From positions 2,112,001 through 2,176,000 of the forward strand of contig OZ253449.1 of NCBI GenBank assembly GCA_965261345.1: DNA of 64,000 bases. Reading direction: 5' to 3'. Source of the stretch: Chloroflexota bacterium (GTDB taxonomy: Bacteria > Chloroflexota > UBA11872 > VXNJ01). Shown here piece after piece: positions 3,707 through 42,733 of the stretch (positions within the stretch are counted from its first letter, which is position 1; the number at the start of each line of letters is the position of its first letter). The notes beneath the pieces are model-generated. The model searched no databases. It was not told the origin of the DNA and was given only the letters and a program-made list of their open reading frames with translations. Both the position numbers and the translations under genes were made by a program.

Positions 3707-4891
3707 ATGCCGCGGCGGATTGCCCATTTCGACCTCGATCAATTTTTCGTGGCAGTAGAACGGGTCGCCAACCCGAGTTTGGTCGGAAAACCGGTAATCG
3801 TCGGTCACGACGGCCCGCGTGGGGTGGTGGCCACCGCCTCGTATGAGGCCCGCCGATTCGGTGCCCATTCGGCCCAGCCGATGGCCGAGGCCCGCCGCCG
3901 GTGCCCACAGGCGATCGTGGTTGCGCCGAATCGGCGGGCCTATCTGGCGGCCTCGGCGGTTTTTCACCAGATATTGCTAAGCCACGCCCCGCTGGTCGAC
4001 CCCGGCGGCCTCGACGAAGCCTATGCCGACCTGACCGGGATAGATGCCGGTGACCTGGGCGGTTCGGCCCGGGCGGCCCAGGCGGTGCGGCGCGCGGTGG
4101 CCGAGGAGCTGCAGGTGGCGGTATCGGTGTGCATTGCCAGCGGCCGCTGTACCGCCAAGGTCGGTTCCGATCTGATCAAACCCGATGGGCTGCTGGAAGT
4201 TCCTCCGGGTGACGATGCCAAATTCCTGCGCCCGCTGCCAGTAAGCAAACTTCCCGCGGTGGGCCCGCAGTTTGCCGGGCAGCTTGAACGGTCCGGAATA
4301 CTAACGGTCGGCGACGCCGCCGCGCGACCCAAGGACTGGCTGATTGCCAAATTTGGGCGCCGCGGGGGAGAACTGTCGGATCGCTCGCAGGGAATCGACC
4401 CGACTCCAGTTCGCGGCCGGCCGGAGCCGGCCAAACAGGTCTCGCGCGAGCAAACTTTCCAAGTCGACTGCGACTCGATTGTGAGCCTGCAGGAGACGCT
4501 GCGCGAACTGGCCGATTCGGTCGCCGCCGACCTGCGAGGGCTGGACCGCCGGGCCAGGACGGTCAGCATCAAAGTCCGCTGGCCCGATTTTTCGACGATT
4601 TCGCGTTCGCAGACGCTGCCCGAACCGGTATTCGACTCTGCCTCTGTGTACGGTGCAGCCCGGACCCTGCTGGCCCGAATCATGCGTTCGGGCGGCTTTC
4701 GCCCGGTGCGGCTGATTGGGGTGGCGGCGGCCAATCTGGAACCGGGTATTCGCCAATTAAAGTTGCCCGAACTGGCGCCACTCGAGCGAGATTTCCAAAA
4801 ACGGCGGCGTGATGAGCGCCGTGACCTGGCAATTGACGCGATCCGGCAACGCTTTGGGCCGGATGCAGTTCGGCGTGGCCCCGGCGGTTGA
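3707..4891 (+). CDS. dinB: DNA polymerase IV (Y-family)
   Basis: IAHFDLDQFFVAVE, GVVATASYEARRFG, LDEAYADL, AKVGSDLIKPDG, VRLIGV; start placed at ATG 3707. Confidence 0.93.
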   Translation: MPRRIAHFDLDQFFVAVERVANPSLVGKPVIVGHDGPRGVVATASYEARRFGAHSAQPMAEARRRCPQAIVVAPNRRAYLAASAVFHQILLSHAPLVDPGGLDEAYADLTGIDAGDLGGSARAAQAVRRAVAEELQVAVSVCIASGRCTAKVGSDLIKPDGLLEVPPGDDAKFLRPLPVSKLPAVGPQFAGQLERSGILTVGDAAARPKDWLIAKFGRRGGELSDRSQGIDPTPVRGRPEPAKQVSREQTFQVDCDSIVSLQETLRELADSVAADLRGLDRRARTVSIKVRWPDFSTISRSQTLPEPVFDSASVYGAARTLLARIMRSGGFRPVRLIGVAAANLEPGIRQLKLPELAPLERDFQKRRRDERRDLAIDAIRQRFGPDAVRRGPGG

Positions 4892-11170: not shown

Positions 11171-12261
11171 CCACTCCCGGGCCGGAAGCGGTCTACCTGG
11201 CGGGCCTGGATCTGCCCGGCCGAAGGGCCTGGTCGCCGCGGGACAGCCTGGCCGAATTGGCCGAATTGGCCACCGCCGCCGGAGCTCGGGTCTGCGGGCA
11301 GCAGTTGGTGCGAGTTCGCCGACCGGGGCCGCGCTTGTTGGTCGGTACCGGCCAGGCCGATTCGGTGATCGCGGCGGCGAAGGCGGCCGGCGCCCAAGCG
11401 ATCGTATTTGACGCCGAATTGCATCCACGCCAGCAGCGCAACCTCGAGTCGCTGGCGCAGATGAAGATCATCGATCGTACGGCGTTGATCCTGGATATAT
11501 TCGCCCAGCACGCAACTTCGGCGGAGGGCAAATTGCAGGTTGCGCGCGCACAAGTTGAGTACCTGCTGCCGCGGCTTTCGCAGCTCTGGGTGCAGTTCTC
11601 GCGGACCGGTGGCGGGATCGGCACGCGTGGCCCTGGTGAAACCCAGCTGGAGCGTGACCGGCGGGAATTACGAGCGCGCTCCACTCAGCTTGACCGCCAG
11701 ATCGAGAAGGTGCGCGACCGACGCGCTCGCGCTCGCCGGAAACGTGAGCAATTCGGAATCGTTGTCGCCCTCGTTGGTTACACCAACGCCGGCAAGACAA
11801 GTCTTCACGCCGCCCTCTCGGGAGCCGGTCGAGCCGGGCACGGCCAGATGTTTGCGACCTTGGATCCGCTGGTGCGGCGGGCCACCCTGCCCGGTGGCCT
11901 TCGGGTGCTGGTAGTCGATACGGTCGGCTTTATCCATGATCTGCCGGAGGGATTGATCGCCGCGTTCAAGGCGACCCTGGAAGAGATCTCGGGCGCCGAC
12001 CTGATAGTGCACGTAGCCGATGCGGCCGCGCCGCGCCTGGCCGAAAGGATCGATACGGTTGTGTCTACGCTTGAGGACCTGGGGTTGGGTGATCGACCCA
12101 GTTTGCTGGCGCTAAACAAGGCCGATCTGGTTCCGCCCGGAAATCCTGCACCGGCTCCGGGCGGAGTACTGGTGTCCGCCCGAACCAAAGTTGGAATAAA
12201 CGAGTTGGGGATGGCAATCGAACGGGCACTGGCGAGCCGGTCGGTCGCGCCACGGGCGTAG
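11167..12261 (+). CDS. hflX: GTPase HflX (short form)
   Basis: IIDRTALILDIFAQHA, GGGIGTRGPGETQLE, VGYTNAGKTS, FATLDP, DTVGFI, NKAD. The frame extends upstream of the track's TTG (11257) to a CTG at 11167 overlapping the dapL stop. Confidence 0.93.
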   Translation: MTTPGPEAVYLAGLDLPGRRAWSPRDSLAELAELATAAGARVCGQQLVRVRRPGPRLLVGTGQADSVIAAAKAAGAQAIVFDAELHPRQQRNLESLAQMKIIDRTALILDIFAQHATSAEGKLQVARAQVEYLLPRLSQLWVQFSRTGGGIGTRGPGETQLERDRRELRARSTQLDRQIEKVRDRRARARRKREQFGIVVALVGYTNAGKTSLHAALSGAGRAGHGQMFATLDPLVRRATLPGGLRVLVVDTVGFIHDLPEGLIAAFKATLEEISGADLIVHVADAAAPRLAERIDTVVSTLEDLGLGDRPSLLALNKADLVPPGNPAPAPGGVLVSARTKVGINELGMAIERALASRSVAPRA

Positions 12262-12294: not shown

Positions 12295-13302
12295 CTAGTC
12301 GCGGTCCTGCGGCTGACCCGGCCGGGCCGCCACCGCATCCTCCAACGGTTGTGAATAGCGATCAAAGGCCGCCCGCAGATGCCCGACCGAATAATGGGCG
12401 TAGATCGTCTTGGTGGTTTCGGGAGACGCGTGGCCGAGGAGGTCTTGAACCTGCGAAAGGTCGGCTCCACGGTCTAACAGGGTGGTCGCCTTTAGGTGGC
12501 GAAAGTGATGGGTTGATGCCGACACGCCGCAGCTTTGGGCATGCCGCTTTACGGTCAACCAAATCGTCTGTGGGGACAGGCGCAGGCGCTCGCCGCGCGG
12601 GCCGGGCCTCGATCCCTTGGTGTGGCGAATAAAAAGCGGTTCAAAATGGTCGGCGCGGCGGTCCAGGTATGCATCGATGTGACCCAGCGTTTGGGGATCA
12701 AAGAAAACGACCCTTTCCTTATTGCCCTTGCCGCTGATGATGGCTTCCCCGACGCGGCCGCTGGCAAGGTCGGCGCGATTGAGCGAGGCGACTTCGGCCC
12801 GCCGCATCCCGGTTGCGTATAGGGTGTTGAGGATTGCCCGGTCGCGGAGCAGGCGCAACCCCAATTTTCCGGTCGGATCGCGATCGGGCAGGGGAGTCTG
12901 ATTTGCGTTATGAACTATCAGGGCCAGGGTCGAATCGACCCGCGGGGTCGAATAGTTTTTCCTGACTTTTACCCGCTGAAGCTGCTCGCGCGAACGTTCG
13001 AGCGAAATCTGCGGAACGGCCGCTTCGCCCGCCAGATACCGTAGCAGTCCGCGCAATCCGGCCAGGTAGGTCTCCACCGTGGACAGGTGATCGCGACCGT
13101 GGCGATCGACCAACCAGAGATAGAACTGCTCCAGGCTGCGTTCGGGCAAATCGTCGAGCCCTGATCGGGCCGGGTCGATCCGCCGGTCATGGAGGTATTT
13201 GCAGAATGCGTTAAGTCCGGTCGCGTAGGTGCTACGGGTGGCCGGTGACTTGGCACGGTTTACCCGCAGAAAGCTGGCGATCGCCGATTCAATTGTTTGC
13301 AT
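12295..13302 (-). CDS. Tyrosine recombinase, XerC/XerD-like, catalytic residues intact
   Basis: RDRAIL..LYATGMRRAEV (R), GKGNKER (K), HHFRH (HxxR), VQDLLGHAS (H), TTKTIYAH (Y); 335 aa with an N-terminal core-binding region. Confidence 0.9.
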   Translation of the reverse strand: MQTIESAIASFLRVNRAKSPATRSTYATGLNAFCKYLHDRRIDPARSGLDDLPERSLEQFYLWLVDRHGRDHLSTVETYLAGLRGLLRYLAGEAAVPQISLERSREQLQRVKVRKNYSTPRVDSTLALIVHNANQTPLPDRDPTGKLGLRLLRDRAILNTLYATGMRRAEVASLNRADLASGRVGEAIISGKGNKERVVFFDPQTLGHIDAYLDRRADHFEPLFIRHTKGSRPGPRGERLRLSPQTIWLTVKRHAQSCGVSASTHHFRHLKATTLLDRGADLSQVQDLLGHASPETTKTIYAHYSVGHLRAAFDRYSQPLEDAVAARPGQPQDRD

Positions 13303-13330
13303 ACTTTACATAATAACGAGATTGGCAAGT
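13303..13330 (-). other. dif-like recombinase-binding site (11-6-11) abutting the recombinase start codon
   Basis: Minus strand ACTTGCCAATC-TCGTTA-TTATGTAAAGT then ATG; compare B. subtilis dif as recalled, ACTTCCTAGAA-TATATA-TTATGTAAACT. Confidence 0.7.
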
Positions 13331-13411
13331 CGCACTCGCCGGATCGCCGGCCAGCCGGCCACAGGTTCGATAATCCGCTAGTCGAAAGAACCCTCTCGTT
13401 GGGGGGCAACA

Positions 13412-15031
13412 TTGCAGAATCGCGAGTTCGCAGCGGCTGACCAGCCACAGCCCCGATGGCGGAAATTGCTGGCGGCGCCATGGGTTTTTGCCGGATTGAT
13501 TGGGCTGTTGGCCAGCGGGCTGGTTACCTCCCTCTACTTCCCGCTATTCGAACTCGGTTGGATGGCCAACCCAGCCTTTGACTTCGTCGATCTGCTGATC
13601 CGCTATTCGCCGGGAGCCTTGGCGACGTGGTCGATCGAGACTTTGGGTCAGCTTGGAAAGCAACTGCTAGAGGCCTCCGGGTTATTGACCTGGATCGCAA
13701 TGGGAGCAGTCATATCCGCTGCAATCACCCGATTCGCGCCGCCGGCATTTACGGTCAGCCAGCGGGCATTGCTGGCGGGCGGAGCCTACGGGGCGTTGTG
13801 CGTGGGAGTCGAAATGCTCGCCGAACTGTCGTTTTACGGGCTAGGCGGGATTTTCTGGATCGCCGCCACCGCCCTGCTTTTCGGGTTTTTGGCCCAAATG
13901 TTCGCCCCATCCGGAGCGATCGCTGAACCGCCAGCTGACCCTCCGACCTGGCCGCCACCACCGCGCCCGGGCTGGTTGCAAACCCGTTCGCGGCGGGAAT
14001 TGCTGGCAATGTCGGCCGCGACCGCGATCATCGGTTCGATCGTTGCGATCGCCGCCCAGCGGAATCTATTAACGGCAACGATCGCCGACAGCGCGGGTCC
14101 GGTTGAAACGCTTATAGGATTTGATCCGGACTTTGTTCCAGCCGCCAACACCCGGCCGCTGGTTACCGCCAACCCCGATTTTTACCGGATCGACATCTAT
14201 ACCCGCACCCCGACATTTGCCCGATCCAACTGGTCGATGCAGGTCGCAGGACTGGTTGACCGCGAACTGAATTTTTCAATCGAGGACATCGAAGCGTTGC
14301 CGGCCCGAGAACAGTACGGGACGCTGCAGTGCATTTCCAACGAGGTTGGGGGGGAGCTTATTTCAACCACCAAGTGGACCGGTGTGCCACTGGCCGAGGT
14401 GCTCGACCTGGCCGGGGTAAAACCCGGTGCCGAGGATGTGGTTTTTTATGCCCCGGGCGGGTACGACGATTCGATTCCGATCGCCAAGGCACTTGAACCG
14501 GGCACCCTGCTGGCATACGGCATGAATGGGCAGCCACTACCGCCCGAACACGGATTTCCGCTCCGAGCTTACATTCCCAACATCTACGGGATGAAAAATG
14601 TCAAATACATAACGCGCATCGAGGTGGTTGATTCCAACCACGAGGGCTATTGGCAGCGTCGCGGATGGTCGGACACCGCGATCATCAAGACCACCAGCGC
14701 CTGGGATCTGCCAGGCGGTAGTCGGATCGGACGGATCAATCCCGGCGAAGACATCATCGGGGGCATTGCATTCGGCGGGGCGCGGGGAATTTCCGCAGTG
14801 GAATGGCACCATACGGATAGTGATATTTGGACTCCGGCCGAGCTTGAGGACCAATTGAGTCCCACCACCTGGCGGCGCTGGAAAGCCGACTTGGGTCTGG
14901 AACCGGGCACTCATCGGTTGGAGGTTCGAGCCTATGACGGCAACGGCGATCCGCAAACGGAAACCCGAACTCCCACCCACCCCGATGGGGCCAGCGGATA
15001 TCACCTCATCCAGCTTTCGGTTAGCGGGTAG
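13412..15031 (+). CDS. Membrane-anchored molybdopterin oxidoreductase (sulfite oxidase family)
   Basis: N-terminal hydrophobic helices, internal SRRELL, TLQCISNEVGG (Mo-ligand Cys), WTGVPL, HGFPLR, YGMKNVK, GYWQRRGW; exact start uncertain. Confidence 0.85.
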   Translation: MQNREFAAADQPQPRWRKLLAAPWVFAGLIGLLASGLVTSLYFPLFELGWMANPAFDFVDLLIRYSPGALATWSIETLGQLGKQLLEASGLLTWIAMGAVISAAITRFAPPAFTVSQRALLAGGAYGALCVGVEMLAELSFYGLGGIFWIAATALLFGFLAQMFAPSGAIAEPPADPPTWPPPPRPGWLQTRSRRELLAMSAATAIIGSIVAIAAQRNLLTATIADSAGPVETLIGFDPDFVPAANTRPLVTANPDFYRIDIYTRTPTFARSNWSMQVAGLVDRELNFSIEDIEALPAREQYGTLQCISNEVGGELISTTKWTGVPLAEVLDLAGVKPGAEDVVFYAPGGYDDSIPIAKALEPGTLLAYGMNGQPLPPEHGFPLRAYIPNIYGMKNVKYITRIEVVDSNHEGYWQRRGWSDTAIIKTTSAWDLPGGSRIGRINPGEDIIGGIAFGGARGISAVEWHHTDSDIWTPAELEDQLSPTTWRRWKADLGLEPGTHRLEVRAYDGNGDPQTETRTPTHPDGASGYHLIQLSVSG

Positions 15032-33451: not shown

Positions 33452-33523
33452 AGCCGACGGTGGGAATCGAACCCACAACCTGAGCTTTACGAAAGCCCCG
33501 CTCTACCCTTGAGCCACGTCGGC
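33452..33523 (-). tRNA. tRNA-Thr(CGT), CCA not encoded
   Basis: GCCGACG acceptor stem, GGGCT-TTCGTAA-AGCTC anticodon arm, GTTCGATTC T loop; followed by a GC hairpin at about 33427-33450. Confidence 0.93.
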
Positions 33524-37660: not shown

Positions 37661-37744
37661 GGAGGGGTGGCCGAGTGGTTTAAGGCGGTGGTCTTGAAAA
37701 CCACTAACCGATGAGGTTCGTGGGTTCGAATCCCACCCCCTCCG
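37661..37744 (+). tRNA. tRNA-Ser(TGA), CCA not encoded
   Basis: GGAGGGG/CCCCTCC acceptor, GTGGT-CTTGAAA-ACCAC anticodon arm, long variable arm, GTTCGAATC. Confidence 0.95.
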
Positions 37745-37761
37745 CCCTCCAGCGTCGGCAT

Positions 37762-37855
37762 GGAGGAGTCGCATAGTTGGTCTAGTGCGGCCGCCTGCTA
37801 AGCGGTTACCCGGCTTTTAACCGGGTCGCGGGTTCGAATCCCGCCTCCTCCGCCA
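37762..37855 (+). tRNA. tRNA-Ser(GCT)
   Basis: GGAGGAG/CTCCTCC acceptor, GCCGC-CTGCTAA-GCGGT anticodon arm, long variable arm, encoded CCA. Confidence 0.95.
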
Positions 37856-42657: not shown

Positions 42658-42733
42658 GCCCACATAGCTCAGTAGGAAGAGCGCATTCTTGGTAAGAATG
42701 AGGTCTCCGGTTCAATTCCGGATGTGGGCTCCA
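42658..42733 (+). tRNA. tRNA-Thr(GGT)
   Basis: GCCCACA/TGTGGGC acceptor, CATTC-TTGGTAA-GAATG anticodon arm, GTTCAATTC, encoded CCA. Confidence 0.95.

Follow-up and report, generated by a model that had tools for sequence, protein, structure and literature searches.

Does the short AT-rich element that touches the start codon of a chromosomal recombinase gene serve as a site for the encoded enzyme, as the promoter of its gene, or as both? This question is raised by a stretch of 64,000 nt of DNA from a Chloroflexota bacterium (contig OZ253449.1; the whole stretch is referred to as the window), in which the gene of a Xer-like tyrosine recombinase is directly preceded by a 28-bp element resembling dif, the target of Xer recombinases. 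A preliminary description of the locus had interpreted recombinase gene and element as one self-contained module. Of this overall reading, a gene-linked site with a XerD-type arm that is conserved upstream of orthologous genes stood up to analysis; a conserved palindrome did not. We regard the chances as about even that an element of 11-13 bp is the cognate site of the recombinase, lies on the gene's own leaderless promoter and is able to support recombination. According to this reading, (TA)TTATGTAAAGT would be the cognate DNA arm of a Chloroflexota Xer-like recombinase, kept beside the 5′ end of the enzyme's own gene. In the window, this arm would form a dif-like site together with a 6-bp spacer and a weakly conserved left half (RYTTGCM), and the site would overlie the sole AT-rich, -10-like stretch in front of a leaderless start devoid of a Shine-Dalgarno sequence. 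Because of this overlap, bound recombinase would occlude its own promoter and thereby regulate itself, and the same site could be cleaved as a target of recombination.

The element in front of the recombinase gene

The 28 bp upstream of the recombinase ATG had been described as an 11-6-11 arrangement fused to the start codon, and exactly this was found. On the minus strand, positions 13330..13303 read ACTTGCCAATCTCGTTATTATGTAAAGT, i.e. ACTTGCCAATC-TCGTTA-TTATGTAAAGT, and the ATG is directly next (13302-13300). Low G+C content and a non-coding position are expected of a canonical dif site. The 28-mer lies within a gap of 109 nt between two divergent open reading frames (ORFs), and 9 of its 28 bases are G or C (0.32) compared to 0.62 in the 12-14 kb bin, which agrees with the claim of an AT-rich site in a GC-rich region. 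With up to three mismatches the 28-mer matched once in the window (0 expected). The 11-mer of the right arm likewise matched once with up to one mismatch (0.11 expected; at least one match in 10 of 100 shuffles) and still once with up to two (2.63 expected).

Relatives were represented by the best 80 of 145 confirmed loci (one genome per species), which were taken with flanks of 4 kb and amount to 648 kb in total. Chloroflexi or Chloroflexota appears in the titles of 78 of the 80 loci, and the named homologues are labelled likewise. The loci are coded L001-L080; the window and L001-L005 (69-74% protein identity) make up the window sub-clade. The site is present in a single copy in the 64 kb of the window and once in each of the 9-kb loci L001-L005.

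A conserved XerD-binding arm, another property of canonical dif sites, was also found. The right arm TTATGTAAAGT is the same 11-mer as the last 11 nt of the predicted dif sites of Caulobacter crescentus, Bordetella pertussis and Geobacter sulfurreducens (Carnoy and Roten 2009, Table 1). The preliminary description had cited a Bacillus subtilis arm with a single differing base and a left arm with an ACTT end, and it agrees with the dif printed by Kono et al. (2011), whose XerD arm TTATGTAAACT has one mismatch to the window arm and whose left arm begins with ACTT. Compared to the other arms given there, the window arm shows one mismatch to that of Frankia alni and two to that of Escherichia coli. 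Two natural variants in the relatives are equal to known arms, namely TTATGTAAACT (B. subtilis) in L011 and the F. alni arm, which appears as TTATGTCAAGT in L009 and as a 10-nt core, TTATGTCAAG, followed by A upstream of the gene in L007, L013 and L015. Within the sub-clade, the right arm is exact in L001, L002, L004 and L005 and reads TTATGTAAACC in L003. Among lineages whose proteins are only about 50% identical, 10-11 positions of the motif are fixed, and variants with one mismatch are almost confined to positions 7 and 11. Judged by its sequence, the right arm is a true XerD-type arm.

An alignment of the six sub-clade genomes revealed that TATTATGTAAA is invariant and that the remaining intergenic DNA has diverged. 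GTTTGC, located 10 nt further upstream, is kept across the sub-clade; it is shifted by one base in L003, and GTTTGC(A/C) stands in the same register in L001, L002, L004 and L005. GTTTGC is all that is conserved of the left half of the window-type site, and the central region shares no more than its two final bases (TA) across the six genomes. The ATG abuts the motif in four of the six. In L001 and L002 the site is situated 560 nt and 354 nt upstream of the gene, respectively, with other DNA in between. This DNA contains an AT-rich run of approximately 60 nt that includes CGTTCACATATACTTAACGCCCTTAACACAT and is nearly identical in L001 (3649-3679) and L002 (3856-3886). Neither the window nor any of the other 78 loci contains this run, which might be regulatory or correspond to a small RNA or a short ORF.

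Two further statements on the start region were confirmed. The hexamer TATTAT does lie 7 nt (GTAAAGT) in front of the ATG, at 13310-13315, and a Shine-Dalgarno sequence is lacking, as no word of the GGAG/GAGG/AGGA type occurs in the 22 nt before the ATG. Such words were detected at 23 of 56 crude gene starts of the window, a rough figure since the most upstream starts were used. TATTAT is invariant in all six genomes of the sub-clade, which fits the proposed leaderless transcript.

The recombinase

The encoded protein is of the Xer type, as had been proposed from the translation; this is indicated by its Pfam domains, its scores with Xer profiles and its relatives of solved structure. The catalytic domain PF00589 was recognized with 93.7 bits, compared to a gathering threshold of 27.1 (Pfam), which makes the protein a member of the family, and the SAM-like N-terminal domain PF02899 with 28.6 bits. 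The residues R167, K192, H265, R268, H291 and Y301 are invariant across 31 homologues, and we take them, from their spacing, to have the respective catalytic roles. Searches at an E value of up to 0.001 yielded 5953 homologues among 8000 candidates scored. R-K-H-R-[H/W]-Y is the catalytic signature of tyrosine recombinases (review PMC5357621). The closest solved structures are XerA (4a8e) and XerD (1a0p). None of the NCBIfam cut-offs of the named families was reached: the protein scored 143.1 bits with XerC (TIGR02224; cut-off 335.15), 137.1 bits with XerD (TIGR02225; cut-off 329.6), 133.9 bits with XerA (NF040815; cut-off 220) and 81.8 bits with XerS (NF003462; cut-off 267). The protein is Xer-like and stands outside all of these Xer families. 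The likeness to integrons, which had been drawn as well, fails at the level of membership, since the profile of integron integrases (TIGR02249) gave 58 bits versus a cut-off of 265 and covered residues 238-304 only.

A quick maximum-likelihood tree of 81 recombinases was divided into two clades, each supported by 100% in the Shimodaira-Hasegawa-like approximate likelihood-ratio test (SH-aLRT). One of them comprises 44 rows and includes the window (window clade), the other one 37 (sister clade). The preliminary description had called the recombinase solitary. It is the only one among the 61 ORFs of at least 90 aa, and the term holds for these 64 kb. Three complete chromosomes of the sub-clade possess one locus each of the family, in a search that distant paralogues would escape. 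P0003 (74%) and P0016 (66% identity to the query) are both listed with a longest contig of 2,278,061 bp, and at least one genome close to the window sub-clade may thus hold two paralogues. Two metagenome-assembled genomes of the sister clade contributed two loci each (L016 and L017; L069 and L080). Some taxonomic labels are probably due to binning errors: L044, a 2.2-kb contig titled Rubrobacter, nests among Chloroflexota in the tree, and P0017 and P0018, labelled Gammaproteobacteria, rank among homologues with a Chloroflexota label.

Conservation upstream of orthologous genes

The check that the preliminary description had itself named, conservation of the motif upstream of orthologues, turned out in its favor: 24 of the 80 loci have a same-strand site at a distance of up to 600 nt, and all 24 fall in the window clade. 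In the 80 loci, the relaxed motif TTATGT[AC]AA[GC] had 80 upstream, 32 intragenic and 14 downstream occurrences relative to the gene, compared to 0-2 matches of four composition-matched control words in the same 648 kb. For the exact 10-mer TTATGTAAAG the values were 58 upstream versus 5 downstream, and 45 of the 58 upstream copies are located outside ORFs although ORFs cover 89% of the bases. In 13 loci, a same-strand copy ends at most 15 nt from the predicted start, and in 11 more the distance is 16-600 nt; 22 loci revealed only more distant upstream copies, 32 none, and 2 had too little flank. The close linkage of site and gene that is typical of single-recombinase xer-dif modules is seen, at 0-15 nt, in the window and in the 13 loci.

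In the window clade, the motif occurs upstream of the gene in 43 of 44 rows (abutting or near it in 14, no more than 600 nt away in 11 and at greater distances in 18), and the remaining locus, L048, has a variant with three mismatches. In the sister clade, 25 of the 37 rows are without the motif and four have matches to the relaxed pattern only. The type of site co-varies with the clade of the recombinase. Six loci of the sister clade (L047, at 3936-3975, L018, L027, L053, L061 and L077) exhibit a second motif, (A/C)T(A/T)ATATCTA(G/C)C(A/T), 30-240 nt upstream of the gene. This motif is palindromic in a 13-4-13 layout with 13, 11, 9, 9, 8 and 8 of 13 matches; L047 harbors a perfect inverted repeat of 18 nt with a 4-nt spacer, the other five are imperfect. 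As the sister clade bears a palindromic upstream site of its own, gene-linked sites of the core type recur in this recombinase family.

Additional copies and gain and loss of DNA

The relatives contain up to four copies of the motif within 4 kb. Many copies are positioned 6-28 nt after stop codons, some of them directed into convergent genes, e.g. after an MR_MLE gene in 10 loci, and such copies facing convergent genes therefore cannot be promoters of coding genes. The orientation of the copies follows a rule: in all loci with both orientations (10 of 10 for the exact motif, 32 of 32 for the relaxed one) the minus-strand copies are upstream of all plus-strand copies, the switch point being just before the recombinase gene. 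A known RNA was considered for the conserved DNA that follows some copies and was rejected, as Rfam gave no match; this DNA turned out to be the 3′ end of the convergent MR_MLE gene, as seen from its codon-position variation.

Two sets of loci differ by DNA that is bordered by copies of the motif. In nine loci of the L022 group, two direct copies enclose a homologous segment of 0.2-2.8 kb encoding DUF2089, DUF4097 and bactofilin-like proteins. A single copy is present in each of L022, L026 and L072, and its surroundings are exactly the outer flanks of the two-copy relatives. L026 is the sister of the two-copy locus L024 with a support of 1.0 in a tree of 2.7 kb of nucleotide sequence, and it follows that the segment has been lost precisely at least twice. 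The second case is L058, which alone among eight colinear sister loci carries an insert of 1.5 kb (1416-2904) between two direct copies. The insert consists of a single gene for an Acyl_transf_3 protein of 418 aa, and its far junction holds a repeat of approximately 20 nt from the 3′ end of the MR_MLE gene next to it. The gain and loss of DNA exactly at the motif suggests that these are marks of exchange there.

The same data bear on three other explanations. Foreign integrative elements that encode an integrase of their own could use the motif as attachment (att) site, in which case its place beside the recombinase gene would be incidental. Insertions and deletions at the sites would be accounted for, and the L058 insert copies the 3′ end of its target gene, as many integrative elements do. 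However, the ORFs examined in the inserted segments (Acyl_transf_3, DUF2089, DUF4097 and bactofilin-like) comprised no integrase and no member of another recombinase family, and throughout the clade the motif keeps its place 5′ of the resident recombinase gene, so that we consider this explanation very improbable.

The second explanation is binding without recombination. The half-sites would then be polar landmarks to which the Xer-like protein or a different factor binds, similar to the XerD binding sites (XDS) of B. subtilis or of the terminator type, and the copy at the gene would be an operator only. This would explain why the copies have the architecture of half-sites, why several of them occur within 4 kb and why the orientation rule has no exception. 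On the other hand, the window and its five closest relatives are single-copy and have no array, the scale of a few kb is far below that of a terminus domain, and the site-bounded gain and loss of DNA suggests strand exchange. Binding alone is thus judged quite unlikely.

The third explanation goes beyond the cognate-site reading. In one large clade of Chloroflexota, the housekeeping Xer-like enzyme and polar arrays of half-sites of the XerD-arm type, located 5′ of its gene, might constitute a chromosomal platform, integron-like or dif-module-like, by which gene-sized segments are captured and excised although they have no integrase of their own. The gene-proximal copy would double as operator, and the window with its one site would represent the minimal form. 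We regard this as an unlikely extension.

Two other candidates for exchange were discarded. For the L042 group, inversion of the DNA between its inverted sites was rejected, since all eight loci are colinear. The extra 1.9 kb between two direct sites of L010, compared to the L006 group, is a gene that L007 and L015 possess too; its loss is not precisely bounded by the sites, and the case is not counted as evidence.

Some features near the motif copies were recorded in addition. In loci of the L042 type, a stretch of 270-720 nt that lies next to the distal site, towards the recombinase gene, is only patchily similar (L042 2913-3199, L078 2462-3185). An all-against-all search yielded 10 short local matches in it, four of them between L067 and L078. 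Both sides of the stretch are 82-88% identical, and it looks like a hypervariable spot beside the motif. In 17 loci of the L022 group, a conserved stem-loop-like sequence, GTTCCCACTGTGTCGTGGGAG, is located about 60-35 nt before the recombinase start (about 3938-3962 in L022); the nearest copy of the motif is approximately 820-950 nt away in these loci and on the other strand.

Arguments against recombination at the element

Several observations weigh against the proposed cognate site, and the first group concerns its architecture. A tyrosine recombinase normally needs two inverted arms. In the 11-6-11 register, 6 of the 11 left-arm positions of the window agree with the reverse complement of the right arm, a value that about 1% of random genomic 11-mers reach, and a repeat search with a 6-nt seed did not report this inverted repeat. 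In the five closest relatives only 2, 2, 2, 4 and 5 of the 11 positions match. Hence, the imperfect inverted repeat of the preliminary description exists in the window with six matches, but it is not conserved. None of the flanking columns exceeded 0.42 bits when 40 dereplicated sites of all lineages were compared, and no inverted partner within 200 nt rose above the background of random positions, by which a hairpin or attC-like partner was rejected. Since neither a conserved flanking column nor an inverted partner above background was found, the general unit in the relatives is a solitary half-site of 10-12 bp and not a two-armed core. Over the same 40 sites, a fixed -35 element or a left arm shared by all sites was rejected too, none being found.

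A second group of observations refers to the distribution of the motif. The recombinase tree mirrors the relatedness of the organisms, and the co-variation of motif and clade could therefore be due to shared ancestry alone. Precise deletions between direct repeats of 10 bp are possible without a recombinase. Furthermore, a variant of the motif is present in direct orientation inside the coding region of 32 of the 80 orthologues, which would be dangerous if all copies were recombinogenic. This intragenic TTATGT(C/A)AA(G/C) is located approximately 374-395 nt into the recombinase ORF of L022 (4372-4381), L042 and 30 other loci. It encodes D-Y-V-K in 28 of the 32 loci and LYVN, LYVK or TYVK in the other four. 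In the 28 loci GAT TAT is invariant while neighboring codons vary synonymously, in genomes of 0.6-0.7 G+C, and the intragenic motif may be an internal binding site. The recombinase gene of the window is without it.

The third group relates to transcription. A promoter scan found no two-hexamer promoter in the window. By the same scan, L042 possesses a near-consensus promoter, TTGACA-17-TAAAGT (10 of 12 positions), whose -10 element is provided by the right arm, so that a purely transcriptional role is viable. In all eight loci of the L042 group CTTGAC is situated 13 nt before the motif, and the ATG follows 2-11 nt after it. The motif would then be nothing but the -10 element (TATTAT in the sub-clade, TAAAGT elsewhere) for the divergent gene and for a recombinase mRNA with no leader or almost none, with a coincidental likeness to the XerD arm and no binding of the recombinase. 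In 13 loci, 0-11 nt separate the motif from the ATG, as for leaderless starts (2-11 nt in lineages outside the window sub-clade), the reverse strand of the AT-rich stretch of L004 resembles a promoter for the divergent gene, and no second recombinase arm is conserved. However, 10-11 fixed positions far exceed what a -10 hexamer needs, and there is no other copy in the 64 kb of the window despite its nusA-infB and rplA-rplJ-rplL operons. Many copies in the relatives stand after stop codons facing convergent genes, and exact identity to three published XerD arms beside a Xer-like gene is unlikely by chance. Moreover, different halves of the motif would be the -10 element in different clades: in the window sub-clade only TATTAT could have this function because the ATG abuts the motif. 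The use of different parts of one 13-mer speaks for a constraint on the motif other than RNA polymerase. We therefore hold a promoter without any further function to be unlikely. That the motif overlaps the promoter everywhere leads to the operator reading, which is part of the proposed cognate site.

Finally, the surroundings of the element do not resemble the terminus. In total, 42 of the 61 ORFs of the window are on the plus strand; left of the site these are 10 of 12 ORFs, right of it 31 of the 45 that were scored. The cumulative GC skew has a shallow minimum, and no maximum, near 10-11 kb and rises thereafter, while the skew at third codon positions (GC3 skew, in terms of the plus strand) is -0.055 to the left and +0.006 to the right of the site. 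Neither a terminus signature nor a terminus-type flip of the GC3 skew was detected in these 64 kb, the left part of which is short and the signal weak. The shift in GC skew that accompanies canonical dif sites is absent within the 64 kb as far as local evidence goes. The reservation of the preliminary description that the site is not like a terminus was well founded, given the majority of plus-strand genes on both sides and the lack of a terminus-type change of sign in GC3. In complete chromosomes the positions of the locus scatter widely, though these assemblies may not start at the origin. It is doubtful, yet conceivable, that the site serves for the resolution of chromosome dimers.

Comparison with known recombinase-site systems

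Gene-linked dif modules are not new in principle, having already been described for XerS, XerH and some archaeal XerA proteins. In the XerS/difSL system of streptococci and lactococci, a chromosomal Xer-type gene lies immediately beside its own site and forms one module with it (PMC5357621, PMC2731167). The window recombinase gene likewise adjoins its own putative site. The difSL site, however, is an atypical site of 31 bp with an 11-bp centre and is found at the terminus, whereas the window site has a classical XerD-type arm, touches the start codon and shows no terminus signature; in addition, the protein scores far below the XerS cut-off. XerH/difH of Helicobacter and Campylobacter is also a single-recombinase system whose site is gene-linked in most species. 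difH is palindromic and similar to difSL, unlike the window site with its lack of a conserved palindrome. Some archaea have a xerA/dif module, and the archaeal dif is not placed at 180 degrees from the origin (PMC5357621). XerA (4a8e) is the best solved match of the window protein, which differs from this group by its score below the XerA cut-off and by its bacterial lineage.

With XerCD/dif, the window site shares the right arm, which equals published XerD arms, the AT-richness and the intergenic position. Differences are the missing inner end of the ATAA type on the XerC arm, the scores below the XerC and XerD cut-offs and the linkage of site and gene. XerL/dif of the Legionellales is a divergent single-recombinase system that was uncovered through the integrated element LME-1. 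As in that case, DNA gained or lost at the site provides a comparative clue; by contrast, XerL/dif was demonstrated experimentally, and its site is near the terminus.

XDS are sites where XerD of B. subtilis unloads SMC complexes; they are used without recombination of the XerC type and occur in several copies across a large terminus region. The half-sites of the relatives are XDS-like in that they number two to four copies per 4 kb and have no partner arm, a pattern from which the window departs with its single site. The arrays of the relatives span a few kb beside the recombinase gene and not a large terminus region. XerD/XDS is named as an established system in PMC11894783. The concept of dif modules has been put forward for Acinetobacter (PMC12907356). 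As in integrons and dif modules, a recombinase gene is accompanied in the relatives by short repeated sites on one side, which bound varying gene-sized segments. Unlike there, the sites are neither attC-like hairpins nor full XerC/D sites of 28 bp, and the segments are mostly conserved among relatives.

For Chloroflexota, dif predictions exist for three Dehalococcoides genomes only. A search of the literature retrieved no earlier description of such a system in Chloroflexota, although the Dehalococcoides dif tables supplementing Kono et al. (2011) may bear on this. If the proposed reading is correct, a large, uncharacterized Xer-like family would gain a defined cognate site; the locus would also provide a testable case of a recombinase reading its own promoter and reveal a spot of DNA exchange at a 10-bp landmark in mostly uncultured genomes.

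Genomic context of the locus

The gene lies in ordinary chromosomal DNA. To its left, gcvTHP, dinB, folD, miaA, dapF, an aminotransferase gene and hflX were identified, to its right nusA-infB-rbfA-truB, eno, nusG, rplA, rplJ and rplL. hflX or an hflX block is located 3′ of the recombinase gene in the window and in 12 of 13 annotated loci, L037 being the exception. The neighborhood of hflX, aminotransferase gene and dapF is kept in 12 of the 13 loci at protein identities ranging from 50 to 74%. Due to this preserved neighborhood, the recombinase gene is regarded as vertically inherited and of the housekeeping type; it is chromosomal and no part of a mobile element. On the divergent side, the molybdopterin oxidoreductase gene is also the neighbor in L001, L002, L004 and L005. 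The coordinates of the features are compiled in Table 1.

Table 1. Features of the recombinase locus in the window
Feature	Position	Strand	Basis
hflX, convergent downstream neighbor	11257..12261	+	Pfam GTP-bdg_N, GTP-bdg_M, MMR_HSR1
Xer-like tyrosine recombinase gene, 335 aa (P0001)	12295..13302	-	ORF and Pfam/NCBIfam profiles
Right arm TTATGTAAAGT, XerD-arm type, abuts start codon	13303..13313	-	Identity to predicted dif arms
TATTATGTAAA, block invariant in 6/6 sub-clade genomes	13305..13315	-	Alignment columns T56-A66
-10-like TATTAT inside TATTATGTAAA	13310-13315	-	Read from sequence; putative -10 function
Putative central region TCGTTA	13314..13319	-	Presumed crossover role, by dif 11-6-11 layout
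Putative left arm ACTTGCCAATC	13320..13330	-	Only outer RYTTGCM (13324-13330) conserved
Rest of the 109-nt divergent intergenic region	13331..13411	.	ORF list
Molybdopterin oxidoreductase gene, divergent neighbor	13412-15031	+	ORF, Pfam PF00174

A search against Rfam gave no match at the gathering threshold in 16 motif-bearing loci and only four tRNAs in the window. The tRNA genes (33452-33523, 37661-37852, 42658-42730), two of which are 18 nt apart, are ordinary. The divergent intergenic region also contains, 8 nt past the left arm, an overlapping palindrome that is rich in G+C (13338-13359; GCCGGATCGCCGGC / GCCGGCCAGCCGGC) and has a complementarity of 86%.

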